Part shown: positions 3,172-3,218 of the stretch, piece after piece
How the letters are laid out: every line of letters begins with the position of its first letter
How positions within the stretch are numbered: position 1 is the first letter of the stretch
Program-made: the position numbers and the translations under genes
The notes under the pieces: model-generated
Seen by the model: the letters and a program-made list of their open reading frames with translations, nothing else
Databases searched by the model: none
What the model was told of the DNA's origin: nothing
DNA from: a virus
Length of the DNA stretch: 11,964 bases
UHGV virus genome: UHGV-1565976
Direction: 5' to 3' (one strand)

Positions 3172-3218
3172 AAAAATAGCGGTACCAGCCGGAAGCAAGT
3201 GTACAAACTGGTACCGCT
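3172..3218 (-). terminator. candidate intrinsic terminator or attenuator in the leftward leader
   Basis: Perfect 11-bp stem (AGCGGTACCAG / CTGGTACCGCT, 19-nt loop) followed on the minus strand by AUUUUUA. Confidence 0.4.

Follow-up and report, generated by a model that had tools for sequence, protein, structure and literature searches.

The species 1 and 2 RNAs of phage T4 are stable RNAs embedded in phage tRNA gene clusters. In lambda, the 6S RNA of PR'-tR' and, in the Stx phages, StxS (PMC7547250) are by-products of a promoter-proximal intrinsic terminator that halts most transcription short of the operon, and they are stable small RNAs with an activity of their own; there, the promoter is a constitutive late one and read-through is driven by Q. 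HK022 is a lambdoid phage without N that has a structured RNA, putL, just downstream of pL and a hairpin-U run in its leader. Closest of all is sRNA-17 of E. coli K1 RS218, an RNA of 193 nt defined by 5'/3' RACE and Northern blotting and encoded in an mEp460-like prophage (Front Microbiol 2020;11:574833; PMC7719688).

The locus described here lies in the virus genome UHGV-1565976 (11,964 nt, the whole stretch of DNA that was analysed, hereafter the window), which holds the same RNA family as sRNA-17 in the same mEp460-like prophage type. As in the 6S and StxS systems, a promoter-proximal intrinsic terminator would halt most transcription short of the operon and leave a stable small RNA, but the promoter is a putative repressor-controlled early-left one, the body of the RNA is a tRNA-like cassette from a longer leader, and no antiterminator was found in the window apart from a late, Q-like one. 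With HK022 the locus shares the absence of N, a structured RNA just downstream of pL, a leader hairpin-U run and a related cI repressor; it differs in that no put element is detected by a covariance model and no paired element follows pR. The sRNA body is closed by an acceptor-like helix, as in the T4-type RNAs, and sits at the tRNA position of a phiV10-like phage, but unlike the T4 RNAs the cassette has been captured in a lambdoid pL leader and is followed by a 3' terminator hairpin instead of CCA. Our favoured reading, which we hold to be quite likely, is that the hairpin and its U run form an intrinsic terminator that gives rise to an sRNA from the leader and acts on the early-left operon as an attenuator or insulator.

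The leader stretch of the window (3030-3760) is 98.8% identical to the lambdoid phage mEp460. The 470-nt leader runs in the order module A, tRNA-like cassette, terminator, module D and yfdP-like gene, and the features of the region are as follows.

3757-4449, minus strand: cI-like repressor gene, 43% identical to HK022 cI
3719..3736, minus strand: terminator-like hairpin after the cI-like gene, from a terminator scan
3641..3701, minus strand: putative pL with operators, transcription start at about 3641, read from the sequence
3701-3687 and 3677-3663, minus strand: operator-like repeats TTGC-N7-GCAA, from the sequence
3677-3672, minus strand: putative pL -35, TTGCAT, from the sequence
3654-3649, minus strand: putative pL -10, TATCTT, at 17-nt spacing from the -35, from the sequence
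3438..3615, minus strand: module A, a conserved structured RNA, from BLAST and compensatory changes in its hairpins
3369..3424, minus strand: module A' hairpin, followed by an AGCGUU linker, from compensatory variants
3365-3231, minus strand: tRNA-like cassette of about 130 nt, the body of sRNA-17, from its closing helix
3177..3219, minus strand: terminator hairpin, from the sequence, RNAfold and covariation over 29-46 distinct stem versions
3074..3181, minus strand: module D, a three-way-junction 5'UTR element of the yfdP-like gene, from RNAalifold and a covariance model
2672..3034, minus strand: yfdP-like gene, the first early-left gene, ATG at 3034, RBS GAGGAG at 3047-3042
1782-2606, minus strand: yfdQ-like gene, after the yfdP-like gene
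1118-1681, minus strand: 5'-deoxynucleotidase-like gene, after the yfdQ-like gene
11369-11776, rightward operon: Q-like late antiterminator, the window's sole antiterminator-like gene

Both flanking landmarks of the original prediction hold, namely a pL-like -35/-10 pair at 3677-3649 and a first leftward gene with its ATG at 3034 behind GAGGAG. The operator-like repeats overlap the promoter-like sequence, a similar TTGC-N7-GCAA repeat is found at pR (4470-4484), and ST64B has the same pL/operator arrangement; judging from these motifs, 3677-3649 would be pL, the main leftward promoter. Leaky read-through of the cI transcript past the hairpin at 3719..3736 could also feed the leader, and the scan gave no promoter-like site between the terminator hairpin and yfdP. 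The rightward operon encodes cro-like, CII-like, Ash/Rha, replication, Dam, RusA, KilA-N and DUF968 proteins. On the plus strand of the same region, Rfam matches above the gathering score were obtained for isrK (58.7 bits, 5708-5784) and the C4 antisense RNA (78.8 bits, 5809-5896), both inside a 382-aa ORF (5348-6496) annotated as a regulator/antirepressor, whose 'Ash' Pfam domain (aa 117-212) covers the isrK/C4 DNA; this overlap suggests a P1/P7-type immI (c4-ant) module and possibly an over-extended ORF call. In CPS-53 of E. coli K-12 the whole immunity region and the leader are missing, and the yfdO-yfdP spacer of K-12 MG1655 (L464 5248-5604) holds iteron-like direct repeats (GATTTTGACGGGTCAGATTTTGATGCGTCA...) up to the yfdP RBS.

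Read on the minus strand, the terminator region is ...CACCACAGCAGCCACUGCUU UAGCGGUACCAG UUUGUACACUUGCUUCCGG CUGGUACCGCUA UUUUUACAAAACAGAG..., or in short UAGCGGUACCAG(UU)-loop-(GG)CUGGUACCGCUA then UUUUUAC, with the following parts, all read from the sequence.

3219-3208, minus strand: 5' arm of the hairpin, UAGCGGUACCAG
3207/3189 and 3206/3190, minus strand: two U.G pairs
3205-3191, minus strand: loop
3188-3177, minus strand: 3' arm of the hairpin, CUGGUACCGCUA
3176-3172, minus strand: U run UUUUU, 0 nt from the stem, present in all relatives with the hairpin

The perfect stem of 11 bp given in the original prediction (3218-3208 / 3188-3178) is correct and a U-A pair (3219/3177) extends it to 12 perfect pairs (3219-3208 / 3188-3177), or to 14 bp with the two G.U pairs; the U run that had been placed directly 3' of the stem on the minus strand is likewise present, and beyond it the distal part ACAAAA is not U-rich. 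Two base changes in the window copy turn the common stem of 10 bp plus G.U into the 12 perfect pairs. The loop of 15-19 nt is larger than a typical terminator loop, and a simple terminator scan skipped the hairpin solely because its loop limit is 8 nt. RNAfold gave -23.1 kcal/mol for 3230-3160 (z = -3.4, with 1 of 200 shuffles as stable), the stability of the stem being given as -22 to -23 kcal/mol, and in the minimum free energy fold of the whole 612-nt leader (-231.8 kcal/mol, z = -4.3) the hairpin and module D are both kept. A stable G+C-rich stem-loop, an adjoining U tract and covariation, the marks of an intrinsic terminator, are thus found together. Since the loop, 15 nt here and as long as 51 nt in relatives, is large and the U run stops at five U, the efficiency of termination may be modest.

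In order to follow the hairpin beyond the window, we used the invariant module D core as an anchor and collected 270 loci, taken from phage and prophage contigs of IMG/VR, 15 GTDB genomes (Citrobacter, Kosakonia, Mixta, Buttiauxella, Enterobacter, Pseudescherichia, Leclercia, Erwinia and Klebsiella) and ST64B of Salmonella; these span at least 10 enterobacterial genera. In 262 of the 270 loci (97%), a hairpin with 6 bp or more (median 9) lies 0-3 nt ahead of a run of 4-7 T, which is mostly 5 long and adjoins module D. The other eight lack both the hairpin and the T run with module D intact, and in none of the 270 loci does the T run stand alone. Of 122 distinct upstream segments, 79% contain a stem of 9 bp or more, as compared to 4.8% of dinucleotide shuffles scored alike. 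Double compensatory changes were observed at all nine base-anchored pairs (loop-trimmed arms), and the covariation score of 0.99, against 0.22 in shuffles, was reached by none of 500 shuffles; the percentage paired is partly by construction because the arms were picked by their pairing. When both were allowed equally, G.U pairs numbered 65 and A.C pairs 13, which points to a structure selected in the minus-strand RNA and not in the DNA. At least seven unrelated kinds of stem occupy the same spot with complementarity kept, such as GGCGGUACCAG/CUGGUACCGCC, GGCGGUUAUCCA/UGGAUAACCGCC, GCGGCAUC/GAUGCCGC, GCGGCGCCAG/CUGGCGCCGC and GUCGGCGUC/GACGCCGAC, relatives adding further kinds (GCGGCGUC and CUGGCGG), and locus L213 has a canonical 8-bp stem with a 5-nt loop, UGCCCAUC-ACAUC-GGUGGGCA. 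Loops in the relatives range from 5 to 51 nt, so that no reading frame is kept across them. The hairpin is more than a chance palindrome; it is a conserved terminator structure.

The arrangement around the hairpin varies between loci. In L230-type loci the promoter is followed by about 55 nt, the hairpin-U run and module D, without any sRNA cassette, so that the terminator belongs to the leader independently of any cassette. The promoter of the Mixta locus (L210) and that of L271 lead directly into module D, which makes module D the constant part, and the cassettes and the terminator additions to it. ST64B-type leaders (L006 1930-2230; L008; L216; L248) have a different first module after pL (GAACAGGCAGGACGCCCACGAAGUAGCCGCCGGUGGCAUACGAAUGACCGGAUGAUUCGC...) and, upstream of the cassette, a second hairpin-U run, CUGGCGG...CCGCCAG CUUUUUCAGG; some leaders thus have two terminator-like sites.

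Upstream of the terminator, BLAST comparisons resolve the leader into a mosaic, the modules of which turn up again in unrelated phages within unannotated DNA. Module A, just downstream of pL in the window, is about 80% identical to DNA of phage P1 between trnI and ban (L003 1501-1685) and to phiV10-like DNA immediately 5' of tRNA-Arg (L004 1501-1745), with a size of about 180-250 nt across the three, and consists of invariant blocks, e.g. CCAGGUAGCCGGAAUGUGCAAG, separated by hairpins with compensatory changes. Module A' and the cassette that follows it are each bounded by a helix, as given here from the sequence.

3424-3416 / 3377-3369, minus strand: closing stem of module A', GAGGGCAUU/AGUGCUCUC
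3365-3357 / 3239-3231, minus strand: closing helix of the tRNA-like cassette, GUUGUGGUG/CACCACAGC

The module A' stem has compensatory variants (GAGAGCAUU/AAUGCUCUC), and its variable inserts include tRNA fragments (L072, L102). Other loci have, in place of the tRNA-like cassette, one of at least 10 unrelated types with the same bounding helix. These interchangeable cassettes measure about 75-185 nt, have the acceptor-like helix GUUGUGGUG/CACCACAAC and mostly begin with GUGGUGAAUGCG, L005 2010-2150 being another instance. One type retains canonical tRNA D and T arms, a genuine tRNA-Arg begins at the same GUGG as the cassette in the phiV10-like phage, and an identical cassette is found in the tRNA array of the T1-like phage IME207. 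The window cassette, which over its first 40 nt shares more than 90% identity with dozens of phages of Klebsiella, Salmonella, Erwinia and Edwardsiella, has the acceptor-like helix and a covarying D-arm-like hairpin and no T loop. The cassettes look like tRNA-derived stable RNAs. ARAGORN reported no tRNA or tmRNA in the window or in seven related leaders, and an Rfam 15 search of 2950-3800 returned nothing at the gathering score, the best hits at E<=10 having E 1.4 and 1.7 on the other strand. Database records place contradictory hypothetical ORFs over the leader, on both strands. A coding explanation for the leader was set aside given this inconsistent annotation and the lack of any PHROG match for the 84-aa and 122-aa leader ORFs; the start of the 84-aa ORF lies upstream of the predicted transcription start, and a 49-aa ORF (3049-3198) matches one PHROG, of unknown function. 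The leader does not code for protein and is built of modules.

The published sRNA-17 was placed on the window via the Table S2 primers and the Northern probe of PMC7719688 (strain RS218, NZ_CP007149). The 5'-end 'full-length' primer falls at 3366-3334 on the minus strand and the Northern probe at 3255-3304 on the plus strand, both with 0 mismatches, and the 3'-end primer at 3173-3204 on the plus strand with 1 mismatch, which defines one further feature.

3173..3366, minus strand: sRNA-17 homologue, 194 nt, from the mapping of the primers and probe of PMC7719688

This homologue is made up of the tRNA-like cassette, a short trailer hairpin and the terminator. Its 3' end at 3173 falls inside the U run, so that, with RACE ends and probe mapping from 3366 to 3173, the hairpin would be the terminator of sRNA-17; RACE as used, in strain RS218 on the homologous sequence, reads termination and exonucleolytic trimming to a stable hairpin alike. 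The original prediction had offered, as one possibility, a discrete leader RNA of about 450 nt ending here: the RNA is borne out by the RACE primers and the Northern probe, but the length is not, since the mature RNA has 193 nt. Upstream of 3366 no acceptable -10/-35 was found by scan or by eye, for which reason an internal promoter for sRNA-17 just upstream of that position was dropped. The 5' end lies 4 nt from the start point of the genuine tRNA of the phiV10-like phage. An end that has no promoter and lies near a tRNA start was probably cut from a longer pL (or cI read-through) transcript, i.e. made by processing of a longer precursor.

In PMC7719688, sRNA-17 is treated as a free-standing ArcA-regulated sRNA gene, and the 'promoter' used in its ArcA EMSA is what we call module A; the word 'terminator' is absent from that paper, in which pL, the cI repressor and the yfdP leader are also unmentioned. 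In its RNA-seq data yfdP has about 0.5 reads in wild-type RS218, where the sRNA itself is easily detected, and rises to 47 reads in the delta-sRNA-17 strain (about 95-fold up), yfdP being the strongest sRNA-17 'target' (log2 6.6), together with yfdR (PMC7719688, Tables 1 and S2). Both genes lie immediately downstream of the terminator of sRNA-17 itself. The delta-sRNA-17 deletion retains the hairpin and carries an inserted pKD cassette with its P1 end facing yfdP. The resistance gene of this cassette then presumably reads toward yfdP, and given the orientation of the P1 end, the roughly 95-fold rise is most simply a polar effect in cis, not regulation in trans. Though confounded by the cassette, these data indicate that the hairpin does not block everything. 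The low yfdP level beside a detected sRNA in the RS218 lysogen fits an efficient stop upstream of yfdP.

Downstream of the terminator, the first helix of module D begins with the last U of the terminator's run. RNAalifold on 17 divergent module D sequences gave 34 pairs, 6 of them with compensatory changes. The outer helix P1 has 20 bp, with compensatory changes at three pairs, and extends to 25 bp in the window's minimum free energy fold because the U run pairs with the downstream GGAGA. The two inner helices, from the sequence, are the following.

Within 3074..3181, minus strand: module D P2, CCGG(A)/(C)CCGG, holding GGG-CUCAUAA-CCC (3141-3129)
Within 3074..3181, minus strand: module D P3, the variable hairpin GCGG-CUGCCA-CCGC

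The RNAalifold consensus for P2 is CCGGG/CCCGG. The core of the module, GACGGGCUCAUAACCCAAUCC (3124-3144), is invariant across genera, and 14 nt of it, CGGGCUCAUAACCC, exactly reproduce the anticodon stem-loop of E. coli initiator tRNA, an identity that takes in the three G-C pairs and the CUCAUAA loop of tRNA-fMet. The initiator tRNA sequence was verified at 100% identity in 5,426 of 5,426 complete genomes (median four copies). Of 5,426 complete E. coli genomes, 2,520 (about 46%) carry the hairpin together with module D. The loss of this stretch from K-12 CPS-53 may be the reason that it has escaped study. The module D covariance model finds a single copy in the window, at 115 bits, and no second copy downstream of pR; 5368-5431, considered as one, scores 14.7 bits and is a plain hairpin inside an ORF. 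The tail of the module (3070-3083, minus strand) is GUGGAGAAACCAAC in the window and GUGGAGAAACUAAC in most relatives, and recurs as GTGGAGAAACTAAC at 5332-5345 (plus strand), at the junction of the CII-like gene and the next ORF, where GGAG is the RBS; it may be a shared boundary or initiation motif.

The hairpin is a structure that covaries on the minus-strand RNA, is coupled to its U run, abuts module D and coincides with a published 3' end. On these observations we infer that the 3' end is made by termination rather than trimming, and that partial read-through is the route to the downstream genes. Leftward transcription from pL, possibly joined by cI read-through, would produce a structured untranslated RNA, and a fraction of the polymerases would stop at the hairpin-U run and release a precursor, which would be trimmed on its 5' side at the tRNA-like junction to a stable RNA of the 193-nt sRNA-17 type. 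Polymerases that pass the hairpin would transcribe module D and then the yfdP/Q/R-like genes. In such read-through RNA the U run would be drawn into the long P1 helix, a plausible substrate for RNase III that could separate the sRNA from the mRNA; cleavage of this 20-25-bp helix, formed only in read-through transcripts, is a possibility. In a lysogen, weak leftward transcription would then yield the sRNA and hardly any yfdP, as in the RS218 data, and upon induction a strong, derepressed pL with incomplete termination would allow early-left expression.

A broader reading, which we put forward tentatively, is that the terminator is one piece of an undescribed RNA control region common to N-less lambdoid prophages, with the tRNA-derived RNAs and module A as cargo upstream and module D as a new cis-regulator of the early-left operon. 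Possible roles for module D are mimicry connected with the ribosomal P site or with initiation factors, a polymerase-modifying RNA unrelated to put, and a decoy for anticodon nucleases.

Rather unlikely, in our view, is factor-dependent antitermination, i.e. an efficient terminator that the early-left genes can only get past by means of a polymerase modified upstream of the hairpin by a phage protein or RNA, with module A or a protein from the rightward operon as the candidates. A leader terminator conserved in 97% of loci does have the look of an antitermination-controlled operon, module A follows closely on pL as a conserved structured RNA, its first hairpin sharing ACGGCG...CAUGCGUCG with HK022 putL, and the authors who described the related phage LLS noted that N is absent and suggested put-like antitermination (PMC12315714). 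However, a put covariance model (R3), built on 20 putL/putR-type sequences from the HK022 sequence and a pattern scan, recovers HK022 putL at 97 bits and putR at 71 bits as a positive control and, at E<=10, finds no match to the put two-stem consensus (CGAACGGC..GUCGGG..GGCG..CAAU) in either window 3030-3700 or the leader of ST64B. It also finds none downstream of pR, the only matches in the window being weak ones at 11807-11883 and 7948-7968 (E >= 2.8). A module A covariance model finds nothing in HK022, and membership of module A in the put family, suggested by the shared ACGGCG/CAUGCGUCG, was rejected as neither model finds the other's element; the first leader module of ST64B, put-like by eye (CGAACAGGC, GGAUGA), likewise has no support from the R3 search. 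Module A is absent from many terminator-bearing loci (L230, L024, ST64B), so that no upstream RNA element is common to all of them, and a second module D, expected after pR by analogy with nutL/nutR or putL/putR, is missing. That no N-like protein is evident, as the original prediction stated, agrees with the Pfam and PHROG scans: none was found among the 14 other window proteins scanned (10 with Pfam, 4 more with PHROGs), the first gene after pL, the canonical place for N, is yfdP-like, and the leader ORFs match only one PHROG. The same prediction held that transcripts from pL would need antitermination; antitermination may be dispensable, in that a terminator with five U, if partly read through by polymerases from a derepressed pL, would let enough of them pass with no factor involved.

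It is improbable that the hairpin serves only in processing or stability, read-through RNA being cut downstream, e.g. by RNase III in P1, and trimmed back by exonucleases. The P1 helix of module D, long, nearly perfect and starting at the U run, would suit such a course, and RACE is blind to the difference between termination and trimming, but a protective hairpin needs no U run, and yet the run is present in 262 of 262 hairpin loci, is gone in the eight hairpin-less loci despite an intact module D, and contains the mapped 3' end, as at intrinsic terminators. Finally, the hairpin can hardly be a chance palindrome, a protein site at the DNA level (the arms contain GGTACC) or part of a small ORF (the 49-aa ORF with its PHROG match, or the hypothetical ORFs that several records annotate here on either strand), given that the ORF calls disagree between records and strands, that pairing is kept between wholly different stem sequences, that the G.U pairs, which are common, would not match in DNA or on the opposite strand, that the variation in loop length is incompatible with a reading frame and that the region is a mosaic of interchangeable cassettes.

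The RNA that ends at this hairpin has thus already been published, and the terminator reading, which we favour, concerns an element ordinary in kind. What is new is that sRNA-17 is placed in the pL leader, that the leader terminator is seen to be widespread and to covary and, as the more novel part, that it is surrounded by three unclassified RNA modules, namely module A, the tRNA-like cassettes and module D, conserved elements that sit in DNA now annotated as assorted hypothetical ORFs. The published "virulence-modulating" sRNA-17 is re-placed as a probable terminated, processed early-left leader RNA of a very common prophage type, which alters the reading of both its regulation and its deletion phenotype. 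For the N-less lambdoid phages, the question of how leftward early transcription passes a conserved leader terminator is now located and, with an HK022-type put RNA excluded here by a positive-controlled search, directly testable.
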